From an uncultured Flavobacteriales bacterium (lineage in GTDB: Bacteria; Bacteroidota; Bacteroidia; AKYH767-A; 2013-40CM-41-45): 64,000 nucleotides of DNA. Below, one piece after another: positions 1-64,000 of the stretch (its first letter is position 1; every line of letters starts with the position of its first letter). Where the stretch lies: positions 38,057 through 102,056 of the forward strand of contig CAYHHK010000001.1 in NCBI GenBank assembly GCA_964356415.1, given 5' to 3'. A model generated the notes under the pieces. The model had not been told where the DNA came from. It saw only the letters and a program-made list of their open reading frames with translations, and did not search any database. The translations under genes and the position numbers were made by a program.

Positions 1-277
1 TCTGCAAGCCGGCATATTGCTTTCCGATTCCGTCAGGTGCACCGGGCAGATCCAGTGCTATAATTGGAATATCGAAAGGCAGCAACCTCGAGGCAAACTG
101 CATTACCTTACCGGCACCAACAATTCCGCTGGCACCTGAGATTACCATTGCTCCGCGTTCGCCTGGTTTTCCAAAAATTTTGGTAACCAGTGTTTCTGTA
201 TCAACGGGGAGTTTCCCGTTCTTAAATATTTCAAGCACTGTTCCCAAGCCAAGTGTTTCCAGTGTTGATTGTCTCAT
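1..277 (-). CDS. partial N-terminal fragment of an NAD(P)-binding Rossmann (SDR/NmrA-like) protein; the gene continues beyond the window start
   Basis: Reverse-strand ATG at 277 gives MRQSTLETLGLGTVLEIFKNGKLPVDTETLVTKIFGKPGERGAMVISGASGIVGAGK..., a glycine-rich dinucleotide-binding loop. The frame stays open to position 1. Confidence 0.4.
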   Translation of the reverse strand, partial: MRQSTLETLGLGTVLEIFKNGKLPVDTETLVTKIFGKPGERGAMVISGASGIVGAGKVMQFASRLLPFDIPIIALDLPGAPDGIGKQYAGLQ

Positions 278-298
278 TGAATTCATATCGTGTATTTA

Positions 299-1498
299 TT
301 ATTGTACATGAAAAATTGCTGCAATTCCCACATCACCGGCCGCGCATCCGAAAATAAGCACATACCCTCCTCCAAGTTCTACTGCCTCTTCCAGTGCCTC
401 CATTAACACTCTTGTTAAAGTTGGACCCTGCGGATGCCCGAATACAAGCGGGCTTCCGGTATTGTTCATTTTATGCCAGTCGTAATTGAGAACTTTTGTA
501 AAAATTGCATCATTCACTGCGAATGGATTGTGGTTTTTCACAACTTTCATATCATGCATCCTAAGTCCTGTTTTCTGAAGCAATTTTTGAACAGCTAATG
601 CCGGAGCTTCTGGCATCAATGATGGGTTGGTTCGCACTTCAGTTTTTGCCACAAATGAAATTTCCACTTCCGGTTTTTTACTGAGTTGTTTTGCTTTTTC
701 TCTCGTGGTTACCAGAAGTGTCGCCATTCCATCGGCAGCATGTGTTTGTGTCCCGCTTGTAACGCATGAATCAAGTTCCCTCATGGCACGCAAGCTCTCA
801 ATGGAAATTTTTTTCACACCTGAATCTTCATCGATCCATCCGGCAGATTTGCCCTGAACATTCAGAATCTCAATGGGAACAGCAACCCGGTCAGTAAATC
901 CGGAATCTTTGGCATTAAAATATTGCTCATACCTGAAACAGGTTAGTTCATCCACTTCTTTCTTTTCAATCTTATACTTTCTTGCAGCCAGTCCTGCAGC
1001 ACTCAACATGGCTTGTCCGGTGGAAGGATCGAAACCGAAGTTGTCCCATACATCGGCAATCACTTCGGTACGTTTGTAACTTCTCCTTTCCGGGAAAACG
1101 CCCACAGGTGAATCACTCGTTCGGTCAAATGTGAGTACACCAACAGTATCGCTAGCTCCACTCTGAACCTGAGCACCTGCAAGGATCACTGCCTGCAAGC
1201 CGGTAGCACACGCCTGCTCAACTTGAAATCCCGGTAATCTTTTTCCCATACAGCTTGCTACAACGGTTGCAGTCCAGAATTTAAAATGCCATGGTACCGT
1301 GGAGCCGATTACCATATAATCAAGGTGGCTTACCGGGACATTTCTTTTGTTCATAATGAGCGCCATGGCTTCGCCGGCGAACTGCCCGATATTGACTTCA
1401 GCCAGTGGGGAAGCCTGCCATGCCGGGAAATAGCTGCATCCCCAAGTACCATAGGGAATATATGCATCAGGGAACATTTTATGGATTTTATTTTTCAT
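299..1498 (-). CDS. thiolase-like protein (SCP-x/nonspecific-lipid-transfer type acetyl-CoA acetyltransferase family)
   Basis: 399 aa with a QACATGLQAV active-site Cys region and the C-terminal GHPQGPTL...GCAAGDVGIAAI thiolase motifs. ATG confirmed at 1498. Confidence 0.7.
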   Translation of the reverse strand: MKNKIHKMFPDAYIPYGTWGCSYFPAWQASPLAEVNIGQFAGEAMALIMNKRNVPVSHLDYMVIGSTVPWHFKFWTATVVASCMGKRLPGFQVEQACATGLQAVILAGAQVQSGASDTVGVLTFDRTSDSPVGVFPERRSYKRTEVIADVWDNFGFDPSTGQAMLSAAGLAARKYKIEKKEVDELTCFRYEQYFNAKDSGFTDRVAVPIEILNVQGKSAGWIDEDSGVKKISIESLRAMRELDSCVTSGTQTHAADGMATLLVTTREKAKQLSKKPEVEISFVAKTEVRTNPSLMPEAPALAVQKLLQKTGLRMHDMKVVKNHNPFAVNDAIFTKVLNYDWHKMNNTGSPLVFGHPQGPTLTRVLMEALEEAVELGGGYVLIFGCAAGDVGIAAIFHVQ

Positions 1499-1513
1499 GC
1501 TTGGTAAAAAGAT

Positions 1514-2644
1514 TTATAGACCGATTTCTTTTGCAATATTTATTTTCAAAATTTCTGATGTTCCTCCGCCAATGAGTGTGAACCGGGAATCGCGCAGGTA
1601 TCTTTCAATATTATATTCTGTCGCATATCCATAGGATGCCAATACCCGTGAGGCCTCATCGCAAATATTCACCGCACATTCTGATGCATATAGTTTTGCG
1701 ATCATCGCTTCTTTTTGCCGGGGAAGATTTTTATCACTCAAGGTAGCTGCATAGAATACATACTGTTTAGCAGTTTCAAGTTGTACAGCCATCGATGCAA
1801 ACTTCATTTGAATTGCCTGAAATTTGCCAATTGGTTTACCGAATTGCGTTCGATTATTGGCATATATTAGTGCATCTTCATAAGCTGCAACAGCAACGCC
1901 AATGGCAAGAGATGCAGTCATAATTCTAATTTCAGCGAGAATTTCTTTGAGACACTTAGTTCCCCCGCCAATCTCACCCAGCAAATATTTTTTTGGAAGT
2001 TCTACATCAATGAATCCTACTTCTGCTGTAAGTGAAGCACGCACTCCCATTTTTTCGATGCTTTTACCAACCACCACGCCTTTCAGATTTGATGGGACAA
2101 AGAATATGGAAAGTTGTTCGCTGTTGTTTGTTTTTGCAAGCACTGTGAAGAAATCCGCAACAGGCGCAGAAGTCACCCATGTTTTTTGTCCGTTTAAAAT
2201 GAATCCTTCATTGCTAATTTTTGCTATTGTTTTTATGGACATTAAATCACTTCCGGCATTCGGCTCGGTCATACAGATGCCGCCGATTTTATTGCCTTTC
2301 AATGCTTCAATGAAATAGTTCTCTGTTATTTCCTTATCTCCGAACCGGTATATGAAGTATGTCCCCATCAGCGATTGCATGGTACACGCCACTGCCAGAG
2401 AAAGAGAACCTCTTGCAAGTTCTATCACAGCCAGCGAGTAAGAAAGTATATCCAATCCACTTCCGCCGGCTTCTGTTGGATATCGCATTCCAAAAAAACC
2501 CATCTCACCGACTTTTTTGAAAAGGGCTTTTGGAAACTGTTTTTCTTCGTCCAGTTTTGCGGCTTCAGGTTTAACCTTCTTATCCGAAAACTCCCGGAAA
2601 GTTTGCTGAATCTGCTTTTGTATTTCGTTTAATTCAAAATCCAT
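1514..2644 (-). CDS. acyl-CoA dehydrogenase (possibly glutaryl-CoA dehydrogenase-type)
   Basis: 376 aa with ACAD fold motifs (GGSGLDILSYSLAVIELAR, C-terminal ...ERYLRDSR...IGGGTSEI). ATG at 2644. Confidence 0.85.
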   Translation of the reverse strand: MDFELNEIQKQIQQTFREFSDKKVKPEAAKLDEEKQFPKALFKKVGEMGFFGMRYPTEAGGSGLDILSYSLAVIELARGSLSLAVACTMQSLMGTYFIYRFGDKEITENYFIEALKGNKIGGICMTEPNAGSDLMSIKTIAKISNEGFILNGQKTWVTSAPVADFFTVLAKTNNSEQLSIFFVPSNLKGVVVGKSIEKMGVRASLTAEVGFIDVELPKKYLLGEIGGGTKCLKEILAEIRIMTASLAIGVAVAAYEDALIYANNRTQFGKPIGKFQAIQMKFASMAVQLETAKQYVFYAATLSDKNLPRQKEAMIAKLYASECAVNICDEASRVLASYGYATEYNIERYLRDSRFTLIGGGTSEILKINIAKEIGL

Positions 2645-2704
2645 TTACTTTTCAGAGGCATTTTTAATATTCAATCTTTATATTATGTATTGTATAATTC
2701 AATA

Positions 2705-3103
2705 CTAAGGAATAATTGCAATTGCTTCAATTTCAATAACTGCGGGGTGATCCAATAAATCACTCACGAAAATCATACTCATGCATGGAAAGTTTTTTCC
2801 TATGATTTTTTTCCAGATTATACCCAATTCCTTTCTTGATTCTAAATATTGATTTCTGTCTGTGCAGAAACAGGTCATTTTACAAATATCTTCTGGTTTT
2901 CCGCCCGCCTTTTCCACGACAGTTAAAATGTTTTTCAATGCCTGTTCGAATTGTGGAATTAATTTTTCACTTGTGAATATTTCATTTTCATTCCATCCAA
3001 CCTGACCGGCCATAAATAGAATTCTGCCATTTGCGGCTAGAATTCCGTTGGAATATCCTCTTGGCTGAGGCCAACCATCAGGCAGGATAATTTCATGCTT
3101 CAT
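2705..3103 (-). CDS. ridA: RidA/YjgF family reactive enamine-imine deaminase
   Basis: 132 aa with the characteristic RidA/YjgF/chorismate-mutase-like fold sequence. ATG at 3103. Confidence 0.75.
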   Translation of the reverse strand: MKHEIILPDGWPQPRGYSNGILAANGRILFMAGQVGWNENEIFTSEKLIPQFEQALKNILTVVEKAGGKPEDICKMTCFCTDRNQYLESRKELGIIWKKIIGKNFPCMSMIFVSDLLDHPAVIEIEAIAIIP

Positions 3104-3106
3104 TTC

Positions 3107-4780
3107 TCAGATATTTACATTGTATATTTTCTGTGCCGCTCCCTTACTTACCAATTCATTCTTTACATCCCTTATCACTTTTTTTCTCACCCGTTTTTTC
3201 GGACTTCCATATCCGCCGCCGCCGCCTGCAATCTGCCGATAAACAGTTCCATCAGGTATGCCATAAATTATATCCTTACTCAAGGGGACAATTTTTTTTC
3301 CGTTTTTGTATTTCAGCTCGATTTTATTCAGCACACTTCCCTTACCCCCGAAGAGCCCATAGTTCTGTTCCACATCACCATCTCCAAAGACAACCATTGT
3401 TGTATCACTCCCACGCAATAAAATTTTTGTTTCGGTTCCAAGGCCTCCCCTCCATTCTCCTGCTCCTCCGGAGTCGCATAAATATTCGTGATGCAGAATC
3501 AAATGAGGAGTTTGCTGTTCGTACATTTCATAATCCTGGTCCAGTACGCCGCCTGAAGCGTCAATCATTCCAATATGGTCATAGCCATCGTCTCCTTTTA
3601 GGGCGCCGCTTCCGCCTTTCATCCCAAAGAAACAGATGTCAACATATTTTTTTCCTGAGGTGCTATGAATTCCGGTAAAGAGAGAACACAGGAGATGGTT
3701 CCATCCTGCAGTGATTCTGTCAGGGATAGCCGGGCCCAATGCTTTAAAAATTGAGTCAGCTATTTGAGGGCAAAGATGATTTCCAAAAGTGGTTGCCGCC
3801 GGGTAGGAAGCATTCAAGATGGTTCCCTCAGGTACTATGTATTTCAATGGCTTCAGCATTCCTTCGTTATGGGGAATGTGTGGATTTACCATTTGTAGCA
3901 GGGTGAGCGTGATAGAAGAGCAAGTGGAAGTGTATGTTCCATTTACGAAACCTTTGGTTTGAGGAGACGATTTTGAAAAATCAAAAATGATTTCTTCATT
4001 TTTAACTGTAATATTTGCGCGTATAGGAAATTTGCTCCCCTTGTGTTTTCCATCGAAATAGACCATGCTTTTTCCTGCGTAGCTTCCATTTGGAATATTC
4101 CTGATTTCAGCACGCATCATTTTCTCTGTAGAGTCAAACAATGCCTGTTTGTGCATTTCAAATTTTTCTAACCCGTATTTTATGACAAGTGCCTGTAGCC
4201 GCCGTTCACCGAGTGTACAGGCACCAATCTGTGCTTTAATATCTTCCTGTACCATCTGCAGGCGGATGTTGGCGAAAATCAGATTCCAAACATCTTTGCG
4301 GAGGATACCTTTTTCAAACAGTTTGACTGCCGGTATGCGTAAAGCCTCCTGCCATACTTCTGTTGCATTCGGGTTATAACCGCCTTGTACTGCACCACCG
4401 ATATCAGCCTGATGACCTTTTGCTGCAGCCCATCCCACGAGGGTATTTTTAATAAATATCGGCTTGAAAATAGCCACATCATTATTCTGGTTACCCATGG
4501 AAAAAACATCGTTGTGAATAATTACATCACCCTCGTGAATGTCATTCCCGTACTGATCGAGTATTACTTTGCATACCGGTCCGAGTGAGAAAGAAAGGAT
4601 TGGAAGGTTTTCAGTTTGTTCCAGCATTTGTCCCTGAGCATCATACAGCCCGGTTACAAAGTCCTTTGCCTCACATAAAATGGGTGAGCGGGTTGTTTTA
4701 GTAAGCGAAATGCTCATCTCGTCCGTGATTGATTTGAAGGCACGCTGGAAAATAGAGACAAGTATTTTATCAATTTGCAT
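3107..4780 (-). CDS. hyuB: hydantoinase B / oxoprolinase family protein (HyuB-like)
   Basis: ~557 aa hydantoinase_B family protein. The ORF track's first codon at 4789 is TTG, and the first ATG is at 4780 (MQIDKIL...). Confidence 0.85.
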   Translation of the reverse strand: MQIDKILVSIFQRAFKSITDEMSISLTKTTRSPILCEAKDFVTGLYDAQGQMLEQTENLPILSFSLGPVCKVILDQYGNDIHEGDVIIHNDVFSMGNQNNDVAIFKPIFIKNTLVGWAAAKGHQADIGGAVQGGYNPNATEVWQEALRIPAVKLFEKGILRKDVWNLIFANIRLQMVQEDIKAQIGACTLGERRLQALVIKYGLEKFEMHKQALFDSTEKMMRAEIRNIPNGSYAGKSMVYFDGKHKGSKFPIRANITVKNEEIIFDFSKSSPQTKGFVNGTYTSTCSSITLTLLQMVNPHIPHNEGMLKPLKYIVPEGTILNASYPAATTFGNHLCPQIADSIFKALGPAIPDRITAGWNHLLCSLFTGIHSTSGKKYVDICFFGMKGGSGALKGDDGYDHIGMIDASGGVLDQDYEMYEQQTPHLILHHEYLCDSGGAGEWRGGLGTETKILLRGSDTTMVVFGDGDVEQNYGLFGGKGSVLNKIELKYKNGKKIVPLSKDIIYGIPDGTVYRQIAGGGGGYGSPKKRVRKKVIRDVKNELVSKGAAQKIYNVNI

Positions 4781-6902
4781 TTGTTTCAATATTTATTTTT
4801 CTAAATGGAAATCCATCTTGAAATTTTTCCCTTTCATAGACTATGAAAGAGCCAAAATCATCAACCACGCAATCATAGTTTGCACTTACAAAGATTGAAG
4901 TAGTTATTTTCTCAATTACACACGGGCCTTTCAAATGGCAACCATAAATGGGTTTATCCCCATCATACACAAGGATGTTTTGCAGTGTATCTAATTCAGG
5001 AATATATACTTCTCTATACCCTTTAATTGCAGATTCAATCGGTATAGATTTTGTATTTACAGAGAGAAATTCAGGTTTTTTTGTTTTGCCAATAACCCGC
5101 AAGCGAAGGTTGATCAGTTCCATTTCAGTTTTCTCTTCTCTGAGTGAGTAGCCAAATTGTCTGTTGTGTTCAGTGTGAAAAAGTTCAAAAATTTTAACAA
5201 GATTATAATTCAATACATCGTTCCAGGTGCATTCCAGCTGAACCTCGTGATACTGGCCAACATAACGCATGTCCAATGTGGGATGAAAAGAAATCCGTTC
5301 GTGCGGAATCCCTTCCTCTATATGCAGTGAATTGATTCCCTCTTCTTTCATTTCATTGAACAGGGAGAGAAATATTTTACGGTTTAGGTTCCCAAATAGG
5401 GAGTAGCAGGACCTGATATAATCATGTTTTAAATCCCCTAAAAGCATTCCTGCAGCACAGAAGATGGAAGAAACATTCGGAACGAGGAACATGGGTATTT
5501 CCAGTTCTTTACATATTTCAGCTGCGTGGATGGGACCTGCACCGCCGGCCACTATGAACAGGAATTCTCTTGGGTCATAACCCCGTTCAACAGAAATTTC
5601 ACGAACTCCCTGAGCCATGTTGCTGTTGATGATGCGATACATTCCAGCTGCGGTTTCCAGCATTGATAATTCAGTTTTTTTGGCAAGTTTCTCGCTGATT
5701 GCTTTCTCTGCTTTTGATTTATTCAGTTTCAATTCACCACCTGCAAAAAAATCCGGATTCAGATATCCAAGGACCAGGTCGGCATCAGTGCAGGCAGGCA
5801 GGTCTCCTCCGCGATCATAACAAACCGGGCCTGGCATTGCTCCGGCACTTTGCGGGCCCATCTGCAACAATCCTCCTTCGTTCATCCAGCCGATGCTTCC
5901 GCCTCCTGCGCCAATGGTAATAATGTCAAGTGAAGGCAGTGCAATACGGTAGCGGTTTATACTTCCATCGGTACTGGTAATACACTGATTATTGATCACG
6001 ATCGATGCATCAAAACTAGTTCCTCCCATGTCAACGGTGATGCAATTTTGGTGTCCCATCAATTGTGAATAAAACGCGCCTGCTGTAGGGGCAGCAGCGG
6101 GTCCTGATAACACTGTAACTGCCGGATTTTTTTTCACTTGTTCTGGAGCAACCACTCCTCCATTCGACTGCATAATGAGTAGTTTCCCTGAAAATTTTGT
6201 TTCTTTTAGTTTGTAGGTGAGATTGTCGAGGTATTTGGCAACAATCGGCCCTACAAATGCACTCACCACAGTTGTACTCACTCTTTCATAAAAGCGAATG
6301 GAAGGCAAGACTTCAAATGATGCCGTAATAAAAACACCGTGAAGTTTGTCTCTGAGAAACTTGACAGCCTGCATTTCATGTGACGGATTTTTGAAAGAAT
6401 TAATAAAGCAAATCGCAATGGATTCCACTTGTTCATCTTTGATTTTCTTAACAATGAGCAACAACTCTTTTTCCGAAATTTTTTTTAGTACTACTCCATT
6501 TGAGTCGATGCGTTCATCAACAGTAAATCTCAAATATCGTTCAACCAGCGGAGTGACATTTTTAAAGTGGTTGTTGTATTGTTCTTCCCGAATTCCTCTA
6601 CGCATTTCAAGGGCATCGCGAAACCCCTTGGTGGTTATTAGAGCGGTCTTCGCGCCTTTTAATGTTAGCAATGCATTGGTAGCAACAGTAGTTCCATGAA
6701 CAATAGTGTCAATTGAAGAAAGGAATTTTTCAAATTCCGTATAGCGCATTTGTGCTATTTCACGTAATCCGTTGATAAAGCCAATTGAGGGATCATGGGG
6801 AGTTGATAAGGTTTTATGTACAGTTGTACCGCCACTATCAGAAATAGCTATGAGGTCGGTAAATGTTCCACCGATGTCTATTCCTATATTCAGTTTTTCC
6901 AT
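4770..6902 (-). CDS. hyuA: hydantoinase A / oxoprolinase family protein (HyuA-like, ATP-binding)
   Basis: N-terminal MEKLNIGIDIGGTFTDL ASKHA-fold ATPase motif. ATG confirmed at 6902, and the longer ORF-track extension is unlikely. Confidence 0.85.
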   Translation of the reverse strand: MEKLNIGIDIGGTFTDLIAISDSGGTTVHKTLSTPHDPSIGFINGLREIAQMRYTEFEKFLSSIDTIVHGTTVATNALLTLKGAKTALITTKGFRDALEMRRGIREEQYNNHFKNVTPLVERYLRFTVDERIDSNGVVLKKISEKELLLIVKKIKDEQVESIAICFINSFKNPSHEMQAVKFLRDKLHGVFITASFEVLPSIRFYERVSTTVVSAFVGPIVAKYLDNLTYKLKETKFSGKLLIMQSNGGVVAPEQVKKNPAVTVLSGPAAAPTAGAFYSQLMGHQNCITVDMGGTSFDASIVINNQCITSTDGSINRYRIALPSLDIITIGAGGGSIGWMNEGGLLQMGPQSAGAMPGPVCYDRGGDLPACTDADLVLGYLNPDFFAGGELKLNKSKAEKAISEKLAKKTELSMLETAAGMYRIINSNMAQGVREISVERGYDPREFLFIVAGGAGPIHAAEICKELEIPMFLVPNVSSIFCAAGMLLGDLKHDYIRSCYSLFGNLNRKIFLSLFNEMKEEGINSLHIEEGIPHERISFHPTLDMRYVGQYHEVQLECTWNDVLNYNLVKIFELFHTEHNRQFGYSLREEKTEMELINLRLRVIGKTKKPEFLSVNTKSIPIESAIKGYREVYIPELDTLQNILVYDGDKPIYGCHLKGPCVIEKITTSIFVSANYDCVVDDFGSFIVYEREKFQDGFPFRKINIETNAN

Positions 6903-7049
6903 TTTAGGTCCTCTCGTTAATACAAATCTTTTTCCCGGTGGAATAATGTAATGCAAAAAGTTTTATAATGATGAGTGATGTTTTATTCATTCGTAGTTGC
7001 CCCTATCTATGTTCATATTTACTCAATGCGCTTTCTTGATAGTGAAATA

Positions 7050-9473: not shown

Positions 9474-9505
9474 GCTGTATTAAATTTCATTGAATATCCA
9501 TTTTA

Positions 9506-12298: not shown

Positions 12299-12528
12299 CT
12301 TGAGGTTCTTTCAACTTTAATAATTTTTGCAGGACAAATTATTGCTGCTTTTAAATTCAATTTGTATTCATCTTCATCGACATCCATTCTATATACTCCC
12401 CCTTTTTCTTTGCTCCCGATTAAGTTGCATTTTCCGTCTTTTCTTGATATTCGCCACCTGCTTTTGTTTGCTTCTGCGCATGCATTGCAGCCAATACACT
12501 TGCTGCGATGAAAGTATATCCTAACCAT
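12295..12528 (-). CDS. small [4Fe-4S] (single-cluster-type) ferredoxin
   Basis: 77 aa with CIGCNAC ... CP motifs. Its start overlaps the U32 stop by 1 nt (TAATG) and its stop overlaps the downstream start (ATGA). Confidence 0.75.
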   Translation of the reverse strand: MVRIYFHRSKCIGCNACAEANKSRWRISRKDGKCNLIGSKEKGGVYRMDVDEDEYKLNLKAAIICPAKIIKVERTSR

Positions 12529-15024: not shown

Positions 15025-15149
15025 ATTATATTTTATTTTTATTTCCTTTTGCAATGTGACAATATTAGTCTTCTATTTTAATCGAAAGAATTCCTCGACT
15101 AGTCTTGCCTTAGGCGAGAACAGGCGGGGTGAATGATTTTTTTTCCAAT

Positions 15150-15593: not shown

Positions 15594-15594
15594 C

Positions 15595-16713: not shown

Positions 16714-16751
16714 TTAATGAATGCTTTCTTACTTTTAAAGTCAGAAAACTT

Positions 16752-16985: not shown

Positions 16986-16987
16986 TC

Positions 16988-55131: not shown

Positions 55132-55148
55132 TTTATTTTCTTCAAAGG

Positions 55149-56399
55149 CTATTTAACATTGATCTGTGCTCGCTGCGCTTGTGGATTTCGATGCGAAGCG
55201 TGTTGAATTTGTTCAATAAAGGCTTCAATCTTTGTAATGCTTTGTCCTTCCGAGAAAAATCTCAGGTCACACAAGTCACCTTCAATTACAAGATACGGAA
55301 TCCCTGTTTCGTCTTTTAACCTTTTTGGCAAGCCGAACTTCGCATTTGAATTGTTGAAGCAGGTTTTTGAATCATGAAATATGATGCCATCACAAGAGAA
55401 TTCCTTCAGCCATTTTGCCAACATTTTCATTTTAGCTTTTTCACTCCTGTTGATGAAAATATTTGTATAGGCAAGCGCCGATGATTTAAATGGATCTTTT
55501 TCATCAAACTCATCAAATATCCAGCTGTTGCAATACGTAGATGCAACTACACCGGTGTTGTTCTGAATGAATAAATCAGAAAGCATTCTGTTCTTTCCCC
55601 AGATGGGCATACCATCCCAGAAGATGCGTGATTGTTCTTTTTCAACAACTCCGGTTTTCTTCAAAATATTTTCCTGTAGCTCTTTTAAAAGTGTCTGGTA
55701 ATATTGTTTTGCTGTTTCTGTACCCCGCAACACCACAATGGGCCCCATATGTATGGTTGCATCAAAAAAACTGAGTGGTGCAGGTGATGCTTTAGACGTC
55801 CTTAAAACCTGTTGCCAAAGGAGGGTGGCCTCTTTGCTGAGCAATAAGGTTTCCCTGAAGGAATCAATGTCAAATTGTTTCCCACTGGCTTTTTCACATG
55901 CAGGAATAATATTTTTATGCTGCTGAACACCTGTGGTAATTATTTCCTCTGAAACATCATCCACGTATCTTGGCGGGGTTATACCTGTAATAGGGCAGTT
56001 AAATTCTTTGGCATAAAAGTTAAACCAATCCTGAACTTCCCTGCATTGATTGGTATTGTAAACTATCAGGTCGGGTTTAGGAACGCCTTTCATTCCATAG
56101 TGAGATTGTAAAGGCGTTTTGCCGCTGAGGTAAGAACCGATGTCACTCGTCGTGTATGAGCATATGTGGTTTGAGAAGCCAAGTTTACCCGCTTCAGGAA
56201 TGAAATCGGTAGCGGTACGTGTGGCACCAAGGAGTGCACCGTGATTTTCAGGAAAATATACATTGAACCCAAAAGATCTTAGCAGTTCGGCTGGCCCAAC
56301 GCTTGTACACCATGCGATTTTTCGTTCACCGGTTTCCAATGATCGAAAATATTCGCTCATCACTGCTTTTAATAACTGTGTTGATTTGATTTCGTACAT
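55149..56399 (-). CDS. 2-hydroxyacyl-CoA dehydratase / benzoyl-CoA reductase B/C family subunit (HgdB/BcrC-like), stand-alone
   Basis: HGD-D family features (conserved Cys and C-terminal ...CDLRFF...). The track start at 56471 is TTG. ATGs lie at 56441 and 56399; the latter abuts the ligase stop (TGAtATG) without overlap. Confidence 0.7.
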   Translation of the reverse strand: MYEIKSTQLLKAVMSEYFRSLETGERKIAWCTSVGPAELLRSFGFNVYFPENHGALLGATRTATDFIPEAGKLGFSNHICSYTTSDIGSYLSGKTPLQSHYGMKGVPKPDLIVYNTNQCREVQDWFNFYAKEFNCPITGITPPRYVDDVSEEIITTGVQQHKNIIPACEKASGKQFDIDSFRETLLLSKEATLLWQQVLRTSKASPAPLSFFDATIHMGPIVVLRGTETAKQYYQTLLKELQENILKKTGVVEKEQSRIFWDGMPIWGKNRMLSDLFIQNNTGVVASTYCNSWIFDEFDEKDPFKSSALAYTNIFINRSEKAKMKMLAKWLKEFSCDGIIFHDSKTCFNNSNAKFGLPKRLKDETGIPYLVIEGDLCDLRFFSEGQSITKIEAFIEQIQHASHRNPQAQRAQINVK

Positions 56400-56400
56400 A

Positions 56401-58149
56401 TCAGGTTGCAAATATTCTTCCAACAGTATTTTGAAGTTCATCCAGACGGATGATATAAATTTCTTCTTCAACAGGGTTTTCGTCTCCGTATAAATTTTCC
56501 AGATGCGCTTTGTATGCGCTCACCACATTTCGCGGAGCTACTTTCATGGATGGAGTCAATGTTCCTTTCTCCAGAGAAAGCTCATCATCGATAATCATAG
56601 CAGCTCTTATTTGTGCAAACTTTTGTCCGATGCCACAATTTGCATCATGTAAGCAACCGTGTAAGCATTTGCTGAGTTCATTCAGGTCGCGGGGACAGAA
56701 GCAACCTTCCTCAGGAGAAATGTTGTAGTCAGGATGATTTAAAAGTTTTTTATTTGGGAATAATATGGCAACAGGATAGTCTTGTCCGCTGCCTACTACC
56801 ATGGCGAATGAGATGTAGTGGCATTTCATCTCGATGAGTTTTTCAAGGTCTGACGGAACAACTTTTTCTCCGTTTGACAATTTAAAGATGCGGTCTTTGC
56901 GGGTGATAAGTTTCAGACCATTTTCTGTAATTTCTCCAATATCACCGGTGCAAAACCAGCCATCATCAGTAAATATTCCTGAATTCGCTTCGTCATTTTT
57001 ATAATACCCTTTCATTACGTTGGGACCTTTCACCTGAATTTCTCCGTCATCTGCGAGTCTGATGCTTACTCCGGGCAAAGGACTTCCTACAATACCATGA
57101 TGGCGTTTCTTATTTGGATTTGTGAGCGTACAGCATGGGGAAGTCTCAGTGAGACCCCATCCTTCTATGACTGGTACATGTCTTTTTTCAAATTCGTCGG
57201 AGAGATTTTTAGGAAGCGAAGCCGCTGCAGTGAAAATGAATTTCAATTGGGGATGAAAAAAGAGTTCTTCTGCTTCCTGATCATTTCTTGTAAGATCAAT
57301 AAGTGACTGGTAAACTTTTGGAACGCTGAAAAAGACTGTTGGCTGAATAATTTTCCAGTTTTCCATGAGCACTTTAGGATCTTTTCCATAGCCGGATTCA
57401 AGAGAGATGGTAGCGCCATTGTAAAGTGCCGTGAATAATTCAAAAATACCTCCGAAACTGTGATGCCACGGGAGATAGGAAAGGAAGCGATCAGTGGATG
57501 TTATTTTCAAGACCTTGGATAGCCCTGCTTGTTGTGATAAAATATTTTCATGTGTAAGTTGAACACATTTGGGAATACCCATCGTTCCTGATGTATACAT
57601 GTTCAGACAAATTTCATCAGGTGAAGCATTAGGATCAATTGAAAAACTTGTATCAGAATTAGTTTTTAGCAACTCATCAAAATGGTGCTGATTGTCAAAA
57701 TATTTTTTTTCAATGTTGTCAAAAACAAAAAGATGCCTGACATGAATGTTATTACTGAGTCTGCCTAATTGCAGTTCTCCGGCTACGCTAAGGAATTTTG
57801 CATCAGAATGATTGATGAGTAGTTCTGCCGTTTCCTGATGAAAATAGGCGAAGATGGGAACACTGATTCCACCTGAAACCATCACAGCAAGTTCAAGTTC
57901 AAGCATTTCAAGGCGATTCGGAGAATAAATTACCATCTTATCCCCGGCGATAAAGCCGAATCGCTTGAGGTTAAAAGCAATCTTTAAAATGTCATTGTAG
58001 AAATTGTGCCAGGTGATGCCTTCGAAAATTCCGTTTCTCTTCTCTTGAAAAACAATATTATCCCGAAACGCCCTTACATTGTGATGCAATAACATAGAAA
58101 TGTTAGGAATCATTTTATCCGGCTTAAATTCAGATTCAAGAGTTTTCAT
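56401..58149 (-). CDS. AMP-forming acyl-CoA synthetase/ligase
   Basis: 582 aa with the AMP-binding motif YTSGTMGIPKCV and C-terminal ligase motifs. ATG at 58149. Confidence 0.85.
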   Translation of the reverse strand: MKTLESEFKPDKMIPNISMLLHHNVRAFRDNIVFQEKRNGIFEGITWHNFYNDILKIAFNLKRFGFIAGDKMVIYSPNRLEMLELELAVMVSGGISVPIFAYFHQETAELLINHSDAKFLSVAGELQLGRLSNNIHVRHLFVFDNIEKKYFDNQHHFDELLKTNSDTSFSIDPNASPDEICLNMYTSGTMGIPKCVQLTHENILSQQAGLSKVLKITSTDRFLSYLPWHHSFGGIFELFTALYNGATISLESGYGKDPKVLMENWKIIQPTVFFSVPKVYQSLIDLTRNDQEAEELFFHPQLKFIFTAAASLPKNLSDEFEKRHVPVIEGWGLTETSPCCTLTNPNKKRHHGIVGSPLPGVSIRLADDGEIQVKGPNVMKGYYKNDEANSGIFTDDGWFCTGDIGEITENGLKLITRKDRIFKLSNGEKVVPSDLEKLIEMKCHYISFAMVVGSGQDYPVAILFPNKKLLNHPDYNISPEEGCFCPRDLNELSKCLHGCLHDANCGIGQKFAQIRAAMIIDDELSLEKGTLTPSMKVAPRNVVSAYKAHLENLYGDENPVEEEIYIIRLDELQNTVGRIFAT

Positions 58150-61347: not shown

Positions 61348-62649
61348 TTAAGCCGAAACTACTCCCTGTGACATAATTATTTTTCGTTGCTCCAGCATCT
61401 GAAAATATGATTCAAGCCGGTTCTTAATATTTGCATATGAAAAATAGCGGGGATCAACCAAATCACTTTCGATGAAACCAACAGGAACACCACATCTTTG
61501 TTCGATTTCCCGCATCATTAATAATTGTCCTGCTGAAAATGAATTGCAGCTTTTGATTGAGTTGATTAAAAATCCGTCCGCTTTATACTCTTTAATATAG
61601 TGTTCAATTAAATCTACCCGTTGTGGCAAATTCAGGTTGGTGTAGCAGCCCATACAATATTTTGCAAGGCTCTCAAGGGGATTTTCAGGATCATGACGGA
61701 AACCTCGGTCATAAACACCACCGACTTTTGTATAAGTCGATGCGACAATCACAGCACCCATGTCATAAAATATTTTCCAAAACTCACGGAAGTTTGTCCA
61801 GTTTGGGGGACCTTCAACTACAAGTCGATATTTTTCTTCTTTTAATTCTCCTTCCGGGTTAATCGGAAGTAATCCCTTTTTAAGACGGTCATCCACTTCG
61901 TTGTATAATTCCTGATAGTATTCAAGTGCAATATCAGTTCCCCTGAACGCTGTGTTTAGAGGGCCCATATAGTACACGCCGGCGAAATATGAATCTATTG
62001 GCGAGGGTTTGTTTTTTGCGGATTCAAGAACCTTTACCCACAAATCTTCTGACTTGGCTGAGTTCTCAAGCATTTTTGAAAGGCGGTCGTAATCCAGTTT
62101 CTTTCCAGCAACTTTTTCCATCTTCGGAATCACTTCTTCTTTCAGCTGCTTCACCATATAGGTGACTTGATCGTCTGTTATTTTTCCATCTTCCTGATAT
62201 GGCGTATGCAGCATTGCAATCTCAACTCCGGGATATAATTTTTCGAGATTTTCAAACCACTTCATGAATGTGAAGCAACCAGTGTAGCTTAATAATAATA
62301 AGTCTGGCTCAGGAAGTTTTTCACCGGTAGGGCCAATATTGCCGTTGAGCATCATGCCAATGTCACACTTAACATAGGTGCATACGTCTTCGCTGAATCC
62401 GATTTTTTCAGCATCTTTAATGTATGAACCGGATTTTTTTCTCATGCCGGACTGAAGTGCATTTATTTCAGGGTAAACAGGCAGCATATCCAGTGCGAGA
62501 ATCAGTTCTGTTATGTTTCCCGGCACAAATGTGTACACGACCTTTTTACCATTCTCTTTTGCAGTACTAAGTTCAGTAAAAAGATTGCCAAGCATCTCTT
62601 TCTGAATGACCATGCTTTTTTCCTTTATTGCTTCCTTTGGATTGCTCAT
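61348..62649 (-). CDS. benzoyl-CoA reductase B / 2-hydroxyacyl-CoA dehydratase alpha-type subunit (BcrB/BadE/HgdA-like)
   Basis: 433 aa with HGD-D family features (GKKVVYTFVPGNITELILALDMLPVYPE) and conserved Cys. Confidence 0.8.
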   Translation of the reverse strand: MSNPKEAIKEKSMVIQKEMLGNLFTELSTAKENGKKVVYTFVPGNITELILALDMLPVYPEINALQSGMRKKSGSYIKDAEKIGFSEDVCTYVKCDIGMMLNGNIGPTGEKLPEPDLLLLSYTGCFTFMKWFENLEKLYPGVEIAMLHTPYQEDGKITDDQVTYMVKQLKEEVIPKMEKVAGKKLDYDRLSKMLENSAKSEDLWVKVLESAKNKPSPIDSYFAGVYYMGPLNTAFRGTDIALEYYQELYNEVDDRLKKGLLPINPEGELKEEKYRLVVEGPPNWTNFREFWKIFYDMGAVIVASTYTKVGGVYDRGFRHDPENPLESLAKYCMGCYTNLNLPQRVDLIEHYIKEYKADGFLINSIKSCNSFSAGQLLMMREIEQRCGVPVGFIESDLVDPRYFSYANIKNRLESYFQMLEQRKIIMSQGVVSA

Positions 62650-62704
62650 TTTGTAGTTTTTTCTGTGACTTAATATTTGTGAGATATCATCTTGATATTA
62701 TTAT

Positions 62705-63868
62705 TTATGCCCATAATTTTATTGAATCCGAAAACGTACCGGCCTGTTCTTTTATTACCTTGAATTGTCCCGTGTTTTCATGAAACTGGAAGTTGATATG
62801 ATTAAGACCTGCTTTATCACATGCCTTTTGTAGTTCCGGGCGATCAAGCAATGCCGGGTCACAAAAACTTGCTGCACAGAAAATGACTCCGTCTGCTTTT
62901 CTACTTATTGCTAAATCAACCAGGCGTTTCCCTTTGGGATTGCCAACGTCATATATTGCAGACGAGAAAACACTTTTTTGAAGAAAGGCATTGACTATTT
63001 CATTGACCGGATTTTCGGTAGTCGAATCAATATCACCCTGAATCCACCTTGATCCGAGCATAAAATCATCATCAATGATGTAGCATCCTGACATTTCAAT
63101 GGATTTAATTAATCCGATTGGTGGTTGTTCACAGAATGAACCTGAAATGATTACTCTTATATTATCCATTGGCTCACCTGATTCATGACGAATCAGGTTA
63201 AGCACTTCTTCAAGAACTTCATTGTGTCTTTCAACCGGAATTACCATTCCTGCACGAACGATATGGTAAACGTCAACAGCAGATAAACGCCATGGATATT
63301 CCTGGCGGATATCATAGATTGCTTCAATCAGTTTCCGGTTTCTGTTGTAGAGAGAAATGGAATGATTGAGTTTTTCGGGAGTAACTTTCACTCCATTTAG
63401 TTGGAACATATCATCCATTACTGTTTCAATCAGCTCGCGATAAAAAACCCCGCCGATGAGTGCATCAAAATTCTGCGGGTAATCAAAGTAGCGTGTAAAT
63501 TTCCCCTTCTTCACAATTTTAAACATTCCGGAAAGATTTCGTACGCAATCGCAGATTGCAGGAAAAAGAAAGCCATCAAAGTCATCAAGATTATGATCGA
63601 GCGCCATTTCTATGATGCCGCGGGGCAAATGACATATGTAGGATTGGTAATAGGCATCTCCTTTAATGATTTGTTTGCGGTCTCCAACTCCCATAATTCC
63701 TACCGGTAATGCATTTGCTGCATGAATGATTTCGCGCGGAACATAAATAGGAAGGTAACCAACAAGCAAGCGGTTAGGAGATTCCTTCTTCCATTCCTTT
63801 GCTGATGAAAAATTCAGGTCGAAAGCCAGTTCGCGACACATTTTCGTTATTTCTTCAATTGACCCCAT
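62705..63868 (-). CDS. benzoyl-CoA reductase C / 2-hydroxyacyl-CoA dehydratase beta-type subunit (BcrC/BadD/HgdB-like)
   Basis: 387 aa with HGD-D family features and conserved Cys (AICDCVRNL; GVIFCAASFCDP). It is the first gene of the cluster. Confidence 0.8.
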   Translation of the reverse strand: MGSIEEITKMCRELAFDLNFSSAKEWKKESPNRLLVGYLPIYVPREIIHAANALPVGIMGVGDRKQIIKGDAYYQSYICHLPRGIIEMALDHNLDDFDGFLFPAICDCVRNLSGMFKIVKKGKFTRYFDYPQNFDALIGGVFYRELIETVMDDMFQLNGVKVTPEKLNHSISLYNRNRKLIEAIYDIRQEYPWRLSAVDVYHIVRAGMVIPVERHNEVLEEVLNLIRHESGEPMDNIRVIISGSFCEQPPIGLIKSIEMSGCYIIDDDFMLGSRWIQGDIDSTTENPVNEIVNAFLQKSVFSSAIYDVGNPKGKRLVDLAISRKADGVIFCAASFCDPALLDRPELQKACDKAGLNHINFQFHENTGQFKVIKEQAGTFSDSIKLWA

Positions 63869-64000
63869 ATGGCATTATATTTTTACGAAGAAAGTTATTA
63901 ATCATAAGATTGAATATGATGCCGGTCAAATAAAAAAATACGAAAAAATACTTTCTGTGATATTCTGAATTTATGGAGCAATCTTGAATTAAATTGAAGT

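Follow-up and report, generated by a model that had tools for sequence, protein, structure and literature searches.

The closest described counterpart of the locus considered here is the benzoyl-CoA cluster of Thauera aromatica, which comprises bcrCBAD, fdx, dch, had and oah. The same organism provides HcrABC (PDB 1RM6/1SB3), the 4-hydroxybenzoyl-CoA reductase of the xanthine-oxidase family, and a cytochrome-c-associated arrangement of nitrate reductase genes, narCGHJI, is known from Thermus thermophilus. A smaller part of the locus can be compared to the 2-hydroxyacyl-CoA dehydratase systems of Clostridioides difficile (HadBC/HadI, LdhA, HadA) and Clostridium sporogenes (FldBC/FldI). We analyzed a DNA stretch of 64 kb, hereafter the window, that contains relatives of all these systems. 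We think that it is probably a chromosomal stretch of an uncultured member of the Bacteroidota in which about five separately conserved modules lie head-to-tail in a lineage-specific manner, and that it is neither a conserved unit, nor a single operon, nor a mobile island. The modules would be (1) bcrCBAD with an acid-CoA ligase, an HGD-D subunit, a PanE-activase fusion, a thiolase and the Dch/Had/Oah and beta-oxidation lower pathway, (2) the MocA-XdhC-SDR accessory genes, (3) cyt c-narGHJI-narK, (4) a Moco biosynthesis operon ending in U32-ferredoxin, and (5) the Hcr-like reductase and TrpB2, followed by a hydantoinase/acyl-CoA set.

Gene content and strand layout

Listing of the open reading frames with Pfam and NCBIfam annotation gave 54 complete genes, 53 on the minus strand and one on the plus strand (Table 1), and alignment to contig L002 added a partial gene at 1-286, which brings the minus-strand total to 54. 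A first-pass annotation had counted 58 consecutive minus-strand genes with one plus-strand exception at 42136..43587; the exception is real, the count is not. Its functional calls (aryl-CoA reduction, lower pathway, an HBCR-like enzyme, full Moco pathway, narGHJI and narK) agree with the annotation by curated HMM thresholds. The plus-strand gene separates a run of 17 minus-strand genes (63868 to 43584) from one of at least 37 (41934 to 1); together with a 201-nt divergent region, it falls precisely where the bcr and nar parts meet. Coding density is 96%. Overlaps of 1-4 nt occur at seven junctions, six of them co-directional and the seventh a convergent stop-on-stop overlap at 43584-43587; 21 further junctions have gaps of 0-30 nt, and five gaps exceed 100 nt. 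Independent assemblies confirm three of the joins, with junctions recovered at 99.8-100% DNA identity and four or more samples represented, and the Moco genes have a collinear copy (L039; 99.8% DNA identity).

Promoter and terminator scans of the window returned signals at shuffle level. In the 140-nt gap behind TrpB2 (6957-7096; RNAfold energy of the gap -34 kcal/mol) lies a hairpin with a 17-bp stem, which is likely to be a transcript end, and this strong hairpin and the internal gaps of 140-343 nt argue for several transcripts. The ModE-N-like HTH protein is the sole regulator-like gene in the 64 kb.

Table 1. Features of the window in descending coordinates, with HMM scores against model cut-offs where available
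Feature	Position	Strand	Basis or remark
bcrC	62705-63868	-	HGD-D-type subunit, Thauera-type class I benzoyl-CoA reductase; TIGR02263 455.8 (cut-off 421)
bcrB	61348-62649	-	HGD-D-type subunit of the same reductase; TIGR02260 692.3 (486.6)
bcrA	59914-61323	-	TIGR02259 439, below cut-off 578; best full-length match
PlsC-type acyltransferase insert	59107-59910	-	PF01553, TIGR00530
bcrD	58161-59021	-	TIGR02261 317 (312.9)
AMP-forming acyl-CoA ligase	56401-58149	-	Pfam and NCBIfam
Single HGD-D subunit (HGD-D3)	55149-56471	-	Pfam and NCBIfam; closest structure 3o3m_A
PanE/ApbA reductase-activase ATPase fusion	53230-55131	-	activase domain closest to 4eht
Thiolase	51971-53233	-	Pfam and NCBIfam
Had	50859-51968	-	TIGR03201 453.5 (338.7)
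T9SS-CTD cargo insert	49665-50852	-	Por_Secre_tail 42.1 (27)
Oah	48560-49756	-	TIGR03200 588.3 (464.5)
Dch	47769-48557	-	TIGR03189 227.7, below 292.5; best match nonetheless
3-Hydroxyacyl-CoA dehydrogenase/enoyl-CoA hydratase fusion (HCDH-ECH)	45766-47772	-	beta-oxidation, lower pathway
MocA-like cytidylyltransferase	45146-45769	-	Pfam
XdhC maturation factor	44311-45162	-	Pfam
SDR	43584-44321	-	Pfam
NAD(P)-binding/DUF2867 protein, 483 aa	42136-43587	+	PF11066, PF13460; only plus-strand gene
c-Type cytochrome	41362-41934	-	nar module
c-Type cytochrome	40434-41300	-	nar module
narG	36795-40412	-	TIGR01580 1435.8 (1084)
narH	35205-36755	-	TIGR01660 644.7 (524)
RIC/YtfE insert	34462-35184	-	TIGR03652 251.6 (204.7)
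narJ	33653-34450	-	51.8, below 59.4
narI	32899-33627	-	TIGR00351 120.2 (105.6)
Conserved 149-aa ORF	32446-32895	-	nar module
beta-Carbonic anhydrase	31788-32420	-	Pfam
Unknown 318-aa protein (unk318)	within 21027..32420	-	nar-associated/inserted
DUF5122 propeller	28987-30723	-	Pfam
Unknown 194-aa protein (unk194)	within 21027..32420	-	nar-associated/inserted
NarK-family MFS transporters (two)	26814-28313, 25451-26866	-	TIGR00886 187 and 294, both below 311.7
T9SS-CTD cargo protein	23331-25370	-	Pfam
Hemerythrin	22335-23045	-	Pfam
Alginate_exp-type porin	21027-22313	-	Pfam
moaA, moeA, TauE permease, mobA, moaD, moeB, moaE, moaC-moaB/mogA fusion	14113..20976	-	Pfam
ModE-N-like HTH	18319-18651	-	ModE_repress domain TIGR00637 87.4, below 98.5
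U32-family protein	12528-13769	-	part of 8523..13769
Small ferredoxin	12295-12528	-	part of 8523..13769
gamma-alpha fusion, 4-hydroxybenzoyl-CoA-reductase-like	9506-12298	-	alpha: TIGR03194 827.7, below 994.6; best match
beta (FAD) subunit, Hcr-like	8523-9473	-	aligns to 1rm6_B through Cys-rich insertion
TrpB-like (TrpB2) PLP enzyme	7097-8464	-	NF009057 736.6 (366)
Hydantoinase/oxoprolinase A and B (caprolactamase-like), RidA, acyl-CoA dehydrogenase, thiolase-like protein	1..6956	-	Pfam and NCBIfam
ECH-like gene, 5' part, runs off window	within 1..6956	-	Pfam and NCBIfam

Modules in related genomes

None of the relatives examined shares the 64-kb layout. Where BcrB is 88% identical, MocA-SDR-HcrCA-HcrB is divergent from bcrC, and in a relative with 93% identical BcrB mixed-strand housekeeping genes lie upstream and an ADP-forming synthetase takes the place of the ligase. 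Relatives from Niastella and Ferruginibacter possess a compact cytc-narGHJI-NarK-SLAC1-hemerythrin-moaA-DUF2867-moeA cluster with opposite-strand genes on either side, and in a Saprospiraceae relative (NarG 89% identical) moeA...moaE-U32-Fd is divergent from nar. The order cyt c-narGHJI-149-aa ORF recurs without RIC in L030-35 and L044-46. As U32-Fd follows moaE in L044, it can be assigned to the Moco operon. The comparison with relatives thus recovers the same modules in other orientations, divergent or separate, and the earlier description of one co-oriented block or island, taken as a conserved or functional entity, is not supported.

Several genes of the window interrupt these modules. PlsC, T9SS-395 and RIC are absent at the corresponding positions in the relatives examined, PlsC between bcrA and bcrD in all of them, and neither L024 nor L028 has any gene between Had and Oah. 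Of the genes in 21027..32420, the nar clusters of relatives keep the beta-carbonic anhydrase (at the matching position between the 149-aa ORF and NarK in the Saprospiraceae relative L044), NarK and hemerythrin, and not the others: in the relatives examined, nothing corresponding to unk318, DUF5122 or unk194 lies between the 149-aa ORF and NarK, and their tabulated nar-Moco regions lack the second NarK, T9SS-679 and the porin. The lineage-specific remodelling that had been suspected from the interspersed T9SS cargo genes is borne out by these insertions. The lone plus-strand gene, with its inverted position seen in three independent assemblies, is 65-68% identical to a co-directional gene that lies between moaA and moeA (L030, L033) or after moaA (L044); as an orthologue of this moaA-adjacent gene it appears to have changed both place and strand in comparison with those genomes.

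MocA, XdhC and SDR are, as far as sequence can tell, accessory genes of the Hcr-like molybdo-enzyme. In L024 MocA-SDR-HcrCA-HcrB is contiguous, with SDR 66% and MocA 34% identical to the proteins of the window. The stretch 51971..58149 is a conserved, uncharacterized sub-module of the Bacteroidota bcr operon, and its gene order is repeated in L024-L029. Homologues of the PanE-activase fusion are widespread across the Fibrobacterota-Chlorobiota-Bacteroidota (FCB) group. All Bacteroidota bcr operons examined embed an uncharacterized acid-CoA synthetase, a single HGD-D and the PanE-activase fusion. At the low-coordinate end, L002 continues the ECH-like gene beyond the window, followed by a two-subunit B12 acyl-CoA mutase.

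Origin of the shared orientation

Adjacent genes switch strand in 2 of 53 pairs in the window and in 19 of 44 in the non-homologous flanks of relatives (binomial P = 8e-11), and co-orientation at the gene level is thus beyond chance. Because each module, taken singly, already runs in one direction in relatives, however, the relevant figure is the chance of about 0.06 that all of about five modules agree in strand; the module level is the one that matters, and there the agreement is not statistically compelling. The co-oriented run also passes both ends of the window, where it has no edges.

Selection could nevertheless have favored the shared orientation, as in a super-operon or a tightly co-regulated regulon. 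A small number of promoters induced under anaerobic conditions would then, by transcriptional read-through, link the oxidation of aromatics to nitrate respiration and to the supply of cofactor. The dense packing with its overlaps and short gaps would suit such a unit, as would the complementary functions of the modules, with MobA and MocA/XdhC fitting the two molybdo-enzymes, the single ModE-N-like candidate regulator, and the adjacency of HCDH-ECH to MocA, which recurs in L019, an unrelated metagenome contig. We nonetheless consider this unlikely, as relatives function with the same modules divergent or apart, the longer gaps, the hairpin behind TrpB2 and the interruption at the bcr/nar join divide the run, and module orientation could agree by chance. 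Strong strand bias of the whole genome, for example co-orientation with replication, would make any 64-kb window of the replichore look similar. The continuation of the run beyond both ends and a cumulative GC skew that is monotonic across the window point in this direction, but an opposite-strand gene of 604 aa follows 2 kb past the window end, strand bias in Bacteroidota is in general only moderate, and the related flanks switch strand often. The bulk GC skew, moreover, tracks the coding strand, and the skews at 4-fold sites and in intergenic regions would, if they indicate any direction, make the plus strand leading and the genes head-on. With about 15 kb of flank retrieved, we regard this reading as quite improbable.

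Very unlikely indeed is a horizontally acquired genomic island, comprising the whole block or its bcr/nar parts, with boundaries outside the window. One relative does carry an IS3-family transposase about 400 nt upstream of hemerythrin-bcrC; in two contigs (L028/L029) the downstream 14.6 kb are 100% identical and the upstream sequences unrelated, although a repeated IS element could have led the assembly to join unrelated sequences here. Furthermore, one 90%-identity NarG cluster bears the labels Saprospiraceae, Daejeonella, Pedobacter and Chitinophagaceae, and NarG/NarH/NarI are 83-89% identical to those of the Saprospiraceae relative, against 32-60% for the Moco proteins. On the other hand, neither the 54 proteins of the window nor the retrievable flank of about 15 kb (10 kb upstream, 4.5 kb downstream) contain transposase or integrase families, and no tRNA or bounding repeat was found in either. 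The window has no Rfam match and no repeats above 40 nt, the longest being low-identity, A/T-rich chance matches. GC3 is 0.37 +/- 0.03 across all genes, and the RSCU of each module correlates with that of the pooled window at 0.81-0.95 (T9SS cargo genes 0.875), compared with 0.06-0.69 for the orthologues of relatives; for the nar genes, GC3 is 0.39 in the window and 0.63 in an 89%-identical relative. Codon usage of the modules cannot be told apart from that of the flanks or of the T9SS cargo genes, which makes a recent acquisition unlikely, and all best protein matches are to Bacteroidota MAGs (Saprospiraceae, Chitinophagaceae). The initial view of a region that lacks mobile-element boundaries and is not an obviously recent acquisition therefore stands, also for the flanks.

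Under the preferred reading of separately conserved modules, rearrangement and insertion within the lineage would have produced the shared orientation. Aromatic acids would be converted to CoA esters, the Hcr-like enzyme would dehydroxylate 4-hydroxybenzoyl-CoA, ATP-dependent BcrCBAD would dearomatize benzoyl-CoA, and Dch, Had and Oah would open the ring for beta-oxidation. Electrons would pass to nitrate via membrane-bound NarGHI, with nitrate imported by NarK and NO damage repaired by RIC, and the Moco genes may serve both molybdo-enzymes: NarG would receive Mo-bisMGD made with MobA, and the Hcr-like enzyme the cytosine dinucleotide form, which depends on MocA and XdhC.

Comparison with described systems

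With the Thauera cluster the window shares the subunit set and the order bcrC-B-A-D. BcrC, BcrB, BcrD, Had and Oah pass the equivalog models, whereas BcrA and Dch remain below the cut-offs; MbdO (9g87) is the best solved relative of BcrC/BcrB, which have more than 120 clusters at 81-94% identity with Bacteroidota MAG labels. The nar genes suggest the same type of host, a nitrate-respiring facultative anaerobe, although from Bacteroidota instead of Betaproteobacteria. In contrast to Thauera, no ferredoxin gene adjoins bcrD (the window's only one is at 12295-12528), and a benzoate-CoA ligase orthologue is not recognizable, the AMP-forming ligase not being orthologous to known benzoate-CoA ligases. 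Instead, the operon embeds this ligase, the single HGD-D subunit, the PanE-activase fusion and the thiolase and, in the lineage of the window, also the PlsC-type acyltransferase and a T9SS cargo gene.

The Hcr-like enzyme likewise belongs to the xanthine-oxidase family, and 1rm6_A is by far the best structural relative of its alpha part (597 bits; next structure 351). Its FAD subunit has the diagnostic Cys-rich insertion, absent from nicotinate dehydrogenase, that binds the additional [4Fe-4S] cluster by which HBCR is recognized. The window also has the accessory genes for MocA and XdhC, and in relatives the enzyme adjoins the bcr genes. Unlike in HcrABC, gamma ([2Fe-2S]) and alpha (Mo) are fused to one protein of 930 aa, and each of the three parts falls short of its NCBIfam equivalog cut-off (828/995, 200/405, 167/258); 4-hydroxybenzoyl-CoA is a putative substrate.

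For the dehydratases, the comparison is limited to the HGD-D/PanE-activase sub-module. HGD-D3 is nearest to HadB and has three conserved Cys, and the activase domain is nearest to HadI and retains the two Cys motifs that bridge the [4Fe-4S] cluster. Some members of the PanE family are D-2-hydroxyacid dehydrogenases, and 3wfi, presumably a D-mandelate dehydrogenase, is among the matches of the PanE part. The sub-module differs from the Had and Fld systems in having a lone dehydratase-type subunit where those have an alpha/beta pair, an activase fused to a reductase, a CoA ligase (ADP-forming synthetase in L027) in place of the CoA transferase, and a location inside a benzoyl-CoA reductase operon.

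NarG, NarH and NarI exceed the equivalog cut-offs, and as in the narCGHJI type the genes are immediately preceded by those for c-type cytochromes and followed by NarK transporters, a layout shared with Chitinophagaceae and Saprospiraceae MAGs. Compared to Thermus, the window has two separate cytochrome c genes, RIC/YtfE between narH and narJ, and Moco genes attached to the nar module, and the conserved Bacteroidota version includes the beta-carbonic anhydrase, hemerythrin and the DUF2867 protein.

Strand layout and gene order in relatives

The window holds 54 complete genes, counted as open reading frames (ORFs) backed by a family match or a conserved position, and 53 of them lie on the minus strand. 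The single plus-strand gene separates two minus-strand runs, and a further gene is present only with its 5' part (see table). Coding density is 96%. Overlaps of 1-4 nt occur at seven gene junctions, one of them the convergent stop-on-stop overlap of the plus-strand gene with the SDR gene, and the intergenic gaps include 21 of 0-30 nt and five of 140-343 nt. The first-pass annotation had described 58 minus-strand genes in one co-oriented block, with one plus-strand exception and short overlaps; the ORF listing confirms the co-oriented pattern, the exception and the overlaps, whereas the figure of 58 is about four too high by the ORF and family listing.

Coordinates of the features discussed (window positions unless a locus is named; L004, contig overlapping a window flank; L024 to L029, bcr loci of relatives; L030 and L033, nar-Moco loci of Niastella/Ferruginibacter; L039, independent assembly of the same population, Moco region; L044, nar-Moco locus of Saprospiraceae)
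Feature	Locus	Position	Strand	Remark
Partial gene, 5' part	window	1-286	-	alignment to independent contig
Minus-strand run, at least 37 genes	window	41934-1	-	
Minus-strand run, 17 genes	window	63868-43584	-	
Sole plus-strand gene	window	42136-43587	+	NAD-binding/DUF2867, 483 aa
Hairpin	window	6957-7096		17-bp stem, after TrpB2 gene
TrpB-like gene	window	7097-8464		after Hcr-like genes
Hcr-like beta (FAD) subunit	window	8523-9473	-	
Hcr-like fused gamma-alpha subunit	window	9506-12298	-	
Small ferredoxin	window	12295-12528		only one in the window
U32-family protein and small ferredoxin	window	12295-13769		close the Moco operon
Moco pathway genes	window	14113-20976		
ModE-N-like protein	window	18319-18651		inside Moco operon
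Beta-carbonic anhydrase	window	31788-32420		inside nar operon
RIC/YtfE iron-sulfur repair gene	window	34462-35184		between narH and narJ
MocA and XdhC	window	44311-45769		apart from Moco operon
Protein used for relative search	window	45766-47772		
HGD-D/PanE-activase sub-module	window	53230-58149	-	
Extra HGD-D	window	55149-56471		
PlsC-type 1-acylglycerol-3-phosphate acyltransferase gene	window	59107-59910		between bcrA and bcrD; only about 10 nt there in all relatives
HGD-D/PanE-activase sub-module	L024, L027, L028, L029	about 13600-18500		
IS3-family transposase and bcr stretch	L028, L029	6675-21302		
DUF2867 orthologue	L030	21701-23170		
DUF2867 orthologue	L033	21786-23234		
DUF2867 orthologue	L044	22505-23618		locus ends within gene
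U32-family protein and small ferredoxin	L044	3376-4868		close the Moco operon
Tryptophanase/tyrosine-phenol-lyase-family gene	L004	8406-9782		218 nt upstream of bcrC, just outside window
Two tryptophanase/tyrosine-phenol-lyase-family copies	L030 (Niastella sp.)	1-2500		about 8 kb upstream of nar
Split moaA	L039	1249-2222		219-aa and 72-aa ORFs
Reproduced join	independent assemblies			upstream of bcrC
Reproduced join	independent assemblies			cyt c/plus-strand DUF2867 gene/SDR
Reproduced join	independent assemblies			MoaCB/U32/Hcr

Adjacent genes switch strand in 2 of 53 pairs in the window versus 19 of 44 pairs in the non-homologous flanks of the relatives (P = 8e-11); counted per gene, co-orientation exceeds chance. 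Because each module is co-directional by itself in relatives, chance can also be reckoned per module, and the probability that all of about five independent modules share one strand is then about 0.06. Juxtaposition of a few large operons gives rise to long co-oriented runs.

In two relatives with 88% identical BcrB (GCA_016714145.1 and GCA_016721635.1), the genes run bcrC-B-A-D, ligase, HGD-D, PanE/activase, thiolase, Had and Oah; the bcrA-bcrD interval lacks PlsC, the Had-Oah interval lacks a cargo gene, and a divergent MocA-SDR-HcrCA-HcrB operon adjoins bcrC. SDR and HcrCA, adjacent in these two genomes, are separated in the window by a 28-kb nar-Moco stretch. In the relative with the most similar BcrB (93% identical), housekeeping genes on both strands lie upstream, the ligase is replaced by an ADP-forming acyl-CoA synthetase, and a 2-oxoacid:ferredoxin oxidoreductase comes after the thiolase. 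In Niastella and Ferruginibacter MAGs, the genes for cytochrome c, NarGHJI, a 150-aa ORF, NarK, SLAC1, hemerythrin, MoaA, DUF2867 and MoeA form a compact co-directional cluster with opposite-strand genes on its flanks, and in a Saprospiraceae MAG (NarG 89% identical) the nar operon and a moeA-mobA-moaD-moeB-moaE-U32-Fd operon diverge from each other. These layouts show the window as a mosaic of modules that are found elsewhere in other orders and orientations; between the modules there are lineage-specific insertions, namely PlsC, two T9SS cargo genes, RIC, a DUF5122 propeller, two proteins of unknown function, a second NarK and a porin. The comparison within the lineage, proposed at first pass as a check, does not uphold the idea of one co-oriented block or island, as module order and orientation differ in the relatives, where the modules are divergent or rearranged. 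The modules are functionally complementary, and this may favour their physical proximity; because the relatives are arranged otherwise, their gene orders show that proximity in a single orientation is not required. As the run is not conserved, we think that the strand organisation matters little by itself.

Assembly, mobility, transcription and replication

An origin of this layout by assembly chimerism can be rejected: the three module joins that were checked recur in independent assemblies of several samples, with nucleotide identities of 99.8-100%, and therefore the layout is not an assembly artefact. The flanks also give it no natural ends. Beyond the window end, the first gene is co-directional and of the tryptophanase/tyrosine-phenol-lyase family, the next is an opposite-strand gene of 604 aa that has no family match, and three co-directional T9SS/PKD cargo genes come after it; beyond the window start, the co-oriented run goes on with an ECH-like gene and then a two-subunit B12-dependent acyl-CoA mutase. 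As the run continues into the flanks, the window ends mark no boundary, and an "island" is here without defined limits. The marks of a mobile island, i.e., an integrase or transposase gene, a tRNA or flanking repeats, and deviating composition, were likewise not found. There are no transposase, integrase or recombinase families among the 54 window proteins or the genes of the retrieved flanks, no tRNA or tmRNA in either the window or a set of nine loci that includes the flanks (flank covered up to 10 kb), and no credible long direct or inverted repeats within the window. Compared within the window, the composition is uniform, with flat GC (0.37-0.44), a per-gene GC3 of 0.37 (SD 0.03) and an RSCU correlation with the pooled window of 0.81-0.95 for every module and 0.875 for the T9SS cargo genes. 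The orthologues of the relatives correlate with the pooled window at only 0.06-0.69, and the nar genes have a GC3 of 0.39 in the window versus 0.63 in the Saprospiraceae relative despite 89% amino-acid identity. From this uniform codon usage and GC3 it follows that all modules are adapted to this host, and their recent acquisition is unlikely. Both first-pass statements on mobility, that transposase, integrase, tRNA and repeat boundaries are absent and that no obviously recent mobile acquisition is at hand, thus agree with the screening of window proteins and flanks and with flat GC, GC3 and RSCU; the suggested search for integrase and tRNA found neither in the retrieved flanks. An older exchange within the phylum is plausible, because an IS lies beside bcr in one relative and one NarG cluster is labelled with several families.

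A single operon or super-operon is not borne out, as the run contains an opposite-strand gene, the five longer gaps and a strong hairpin after the TrpB2 gene. The gaps, which reach 343 nt, and this hairpin indicate that the window is probably covered by several transcripts. Scans for sigma-70 promoter and intrinsic-terminator consensus gave counts equal to shuffled controls, one site was found for the Bacteroidota -7 motif TAnnTTTG, and an Rfam scan of the window, e.g., for a Moco riboswitch, had no match. With respect to replication, bulk GC skew follows the coding strand, and in relatives the coding strand has a negative 4-fold-site skew whichever way the genes are oriented, a same-sign result that reflects codon bias; locally, this test comprises only two opposite-strand genes. 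The plus strand of the intergenic DNA (2343 nt) has a GC skew of +0.114 +/- 0.039 and an AT skew of -0.10, both confounded by A-rich, G-poor leaders and by codon bias, and hints that the 53 genes may lie on the lagging strand, head-on to replication.

Some further observations touch on mobility and regulation. In the relatives' loci L028 and L029, an IS3-family transposase gene (HTH_Tnp_1 + rve) lies just upstream (about 400 nt) of hemerythrin-bcrC, and the two loci match at 100% identity over a 14.6-kb stretch that starts 65 nt before the IS ORF; ahead of that point they are unrelated. The bcr cluster may have been mobile, or the contigs may have been joined in assembly through a repeated IS element. 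One 90%-identity NarG cluster is labelled with Saprospiraceae, Daejeonella, Pedobacter and Chitinophagaceae MAGs. Between the window and the Saprospiraceae locus L044, NarG, NarH and NarI are 83-89% identical, whereas the neighbouring Moco proteins reach only 32-60%; either extreme constraint on NarGHI or an exchange of nar within the phylum could account for this. The 64 kb contain a single regulator-like gene; it encodes the ModE-N-like protein of 110 aa, which consists of a DNA-binding domain of the ModE N-terminal type alone (87 bits, slightly short of the cut-off).

Predicted catabolic and respiratory enzymes

Family calls were made with curated NCBIfam models with equivalog cut-offs and with Pfam domains alongside, and they bear out the first-pass functional reading of aryl-CoA reduction, lower pathway, HBCR-like enzyme, Moco biosynthesis and nar. 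The HGD-D-type subunits BcrC (455.8 vs 421.15) and BcrB (692.3 vs 486.55) pass the equivalog cut-offs, as does BcrD (317 vs 312.85); BcrA stays below (439.3 vs 578) and is the best match with a full-length alignment (3-432 of 432). These matches place the reductase in the Thauera type rather than the Bzd type, and its genes follow the canonical bcrC-B-A-D order. In contrast to Thauera-type systems, in which a dedicated ferredoxin is the donor for the ATP-dependent two-electron reduction of benzoyl-CoA to the cyclic dienoyl-CoA, no ferredoxin gene is adjacent to bcrD. The possibility that the HGD-D and BcrAD genes encode only 2-hydroxyacyl-CoA dehydratases was rejected, as the Bcr equivalog scores are far above the Had scores. 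For the lower pathway, Had (453.5 vs 338.65) and Oah (588.3 vs 464.45) lie above their cut-offs, and Dch lies below (227.7 vs 292.5), though it is the top match. More than 120 clusters with the labels Bacteroidota, Bacteroidia, Flavobacteriales or Ferruginibacter match BcrB at 81-94% identity, and the closest named homologues are Bacteroidota MAGs. The 45766-47772 protein has no close relative in species-representative genomes or metagenome contigs (best 28% and 62% identity, short contigs), and tblastn of the loci from this protein scan gave nothing relevant; an exact-protein match of the ACAD gene was found on one 1.8-kb contig only.

The Hcr-like enzyme belongs to the xanthine-oxidase family. 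Its alpha (827.7 vs 994.55), beta (200.1 vs 404.55) and gamma (166.7 vs 257.8) parts are all below the NCBIfam HcrABC equivalog cut-offs, each with HcrABC as its best family, and PDB 1rm6_A scores 597 bits versus 351 for the next structure. The FAD subunit of HBCR carries a Cys-rich insertion that binds an extra [4Fe-4S] cluster and is absent from other xanthine-oxidase-family enzymes. Residues about 118-160 of the FAD subunit encoded here align without gaps to this insertion in 1rm6_B with all Cys conserved, whereas the alignment to nicotinate dehydrogenase 3hrd_C, which lacks the insertion, breaks between residues 118 and 162. With best family and insertion on one side and scores below the cut-offs on the other, we therefore call the enzyme "HBCR-like", and an equivalog status is not justified. 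The TrpB-like gene behind it scores 737 against a cut-off of 366; together with the tryptophanase/tyrosine-phenol-lyase-family genes, a link to aromatic amino-acid catabolism is possible.

Among the nitrate reductase subunits, NarG (1435.8 vs 1084), NarH (644.7 vs 524) and NarI (120.2 vs 105.6) exceed the equivalog cut-offs; NarJ is slightly below (51.8 vs 59.35) and is conserved in position in the synteny of the relatives. NarG shares 89% identity with Saprospiraceae MAGs and 81-82% with Niastella and Ferruginibacter. RIC/YtfE (252 vs cut-off 205) was not found at its position in relatives; the beta-carbonic anhydrase is present also in L044. By Pfam, the Moco pathway is complete, with MoaA, a MoaC-MoaB (MogA/MoaB) fusion, MoaD, MoaE, MoeB, MoeA and MobA, and no ModABC molybdate transporter is encoded within the window. 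In L039, a frameshift splits moaA, owing either to an assembly error or to strain-level pseudogenisation. Two window genes have a T9SS C-terminal sorting domain above the Pfam threshold. The U32 family includes the O2-independent hydroxylases UbiU/V and TrhP; that the U32-ferredoxin pair is part of the Hcr module was rejected, since it follows moaE in a relative without a nearby Hcr gene. The DUF2867 gene, whose orthologues have 65-68% identity, follows moaA in all three relatives and lies in the moaA-moeA interval in L030 and L033. It is a conserved member of the Bacteroidota nar-Moco cluster, and in the window it is displaced to the nar/bcr join and inverted, its stop overlapping the convergent SDR stop by 4 nt.

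In the proposed pathway, aromatic acids would be converted to CoA esters by a 582-aa ligase, which is not an orthologue of known benzoate-CoA ligases. 4-Hydroxybenzoyl-CoA would be reductively dehydroxylated by the Hcr-like enzyme, benzoyl-CoA dearomatised by BcrCBAD at ATP cost, the ring opened by Dch, Had and Oah, and beta-oxidation finished by a fused dehydrogenase/hydratase, thiolases and an acyl-CoA dehydrogenase. Electrons would pass to nitrate via NarGHI and its two c-type cytochromes, the NarK proteins would exchange nitrate and nitrite, RIC and the hemerythrins would deal with NO stress, and the Moco genes would provide both cofactor variants. Judged from its genes, the window is a putative catabolic and respiratory supercluster of known enzyme families in an understudied host phylum. 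We consider this gene content, a complete, codon-adapted Thauera-type benzoyl-CoA, HBCR-like and Nar/Moco set in Bacteroidota, more useful than the strand pattern. Within the literature searched, no paper was found on anaerobic benzoyl-CoA metabolism in Bacteroidota, and the pathway is scarcely described there, yet the many close BcrB protein clusters are in public MAGs. If the genes are active, such organisms would have to count among the anaerobic aromatic consumers in wastewater and sediments.

The embedded HGD-D/PanE-activase sub-module

Between bcrD and the thiolase gene, all five Bacteroidota bcr operon versions examined carry an acid-CoA synthetase, an extra HGD-D and a PanE/ApbA-activase fusion. 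At E <= 1e-20, 907 homologues of the fusion are found; the best 120 come from Bacteroidota, Ignavibacteria and Calditrichaeota MAGs, and each of them is a full-length fusion with "2-dehydropantoate 2-reductase" as its sole annotation. Among MAGs of the Fibrobacterota-Chlorobiota-Bacteroidota (FCB) group the fusion is widespread, and at least seven of these 120 lie on contigs of the same length as BcrB matches, implying one shared contig in each case. A plausible role of the sub-module is a route from aryl-lactate to aryl-acrylyl-CoA and into the benzoyl-CoA pathway.

A joint reading, which we regard as improbable when taken as a whole, would see an overlooked guild of aromatic degraders that live anaerobically by nitrate respiration in Bacteroidota, Saprospiraceae- and Chitinophagaceae-like populations among them. 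Their bcr operons would carry a conserved ATP-driven radical-enzyme module, consisting of the single HGD-D, a fusion of PanE reductase and "archerase" ATPase, and the acid-CoA synthetase, that could convert Phe/Tyr-derived aryl-2-oxo or aryl-2-hydroxy acids to aryl-acrylyl-CoA. From there, beta-oxidation would lead to benzoyl-CoA, or to 4-hydroxybenzoyl-CoA, on which the Hcr-like enzyme is proposed to act. An amino-acid origin of the substrates would fit because a tryptophanase/tyrosine-phenol-lyase-family gene lies directly upstream of bcrC. Saprospiraceae- and Chitinophagaceae-like populations are common in sludge and sediment metagenomes. If the genes are active, the embedded module would represent a new enzyme system that merits characterisation.

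Compared with heterodimeric alpha/beta 2-hydroxyacyl-CoA dehydratases, there is only one extra HGD-D gene, both here and in all relatives; its product is closest to the alpha subunit of 2-hydroxyisocaproyl-CoA dehydratase (HadB-like) and has three conserved Cys. The activase domain of the fusion resembles HadI, HgdC and MbdQ, with which its NDKCAAGTG and CTVFA motifs align, and both [4Fe-4S]-bridging Cys are kept.
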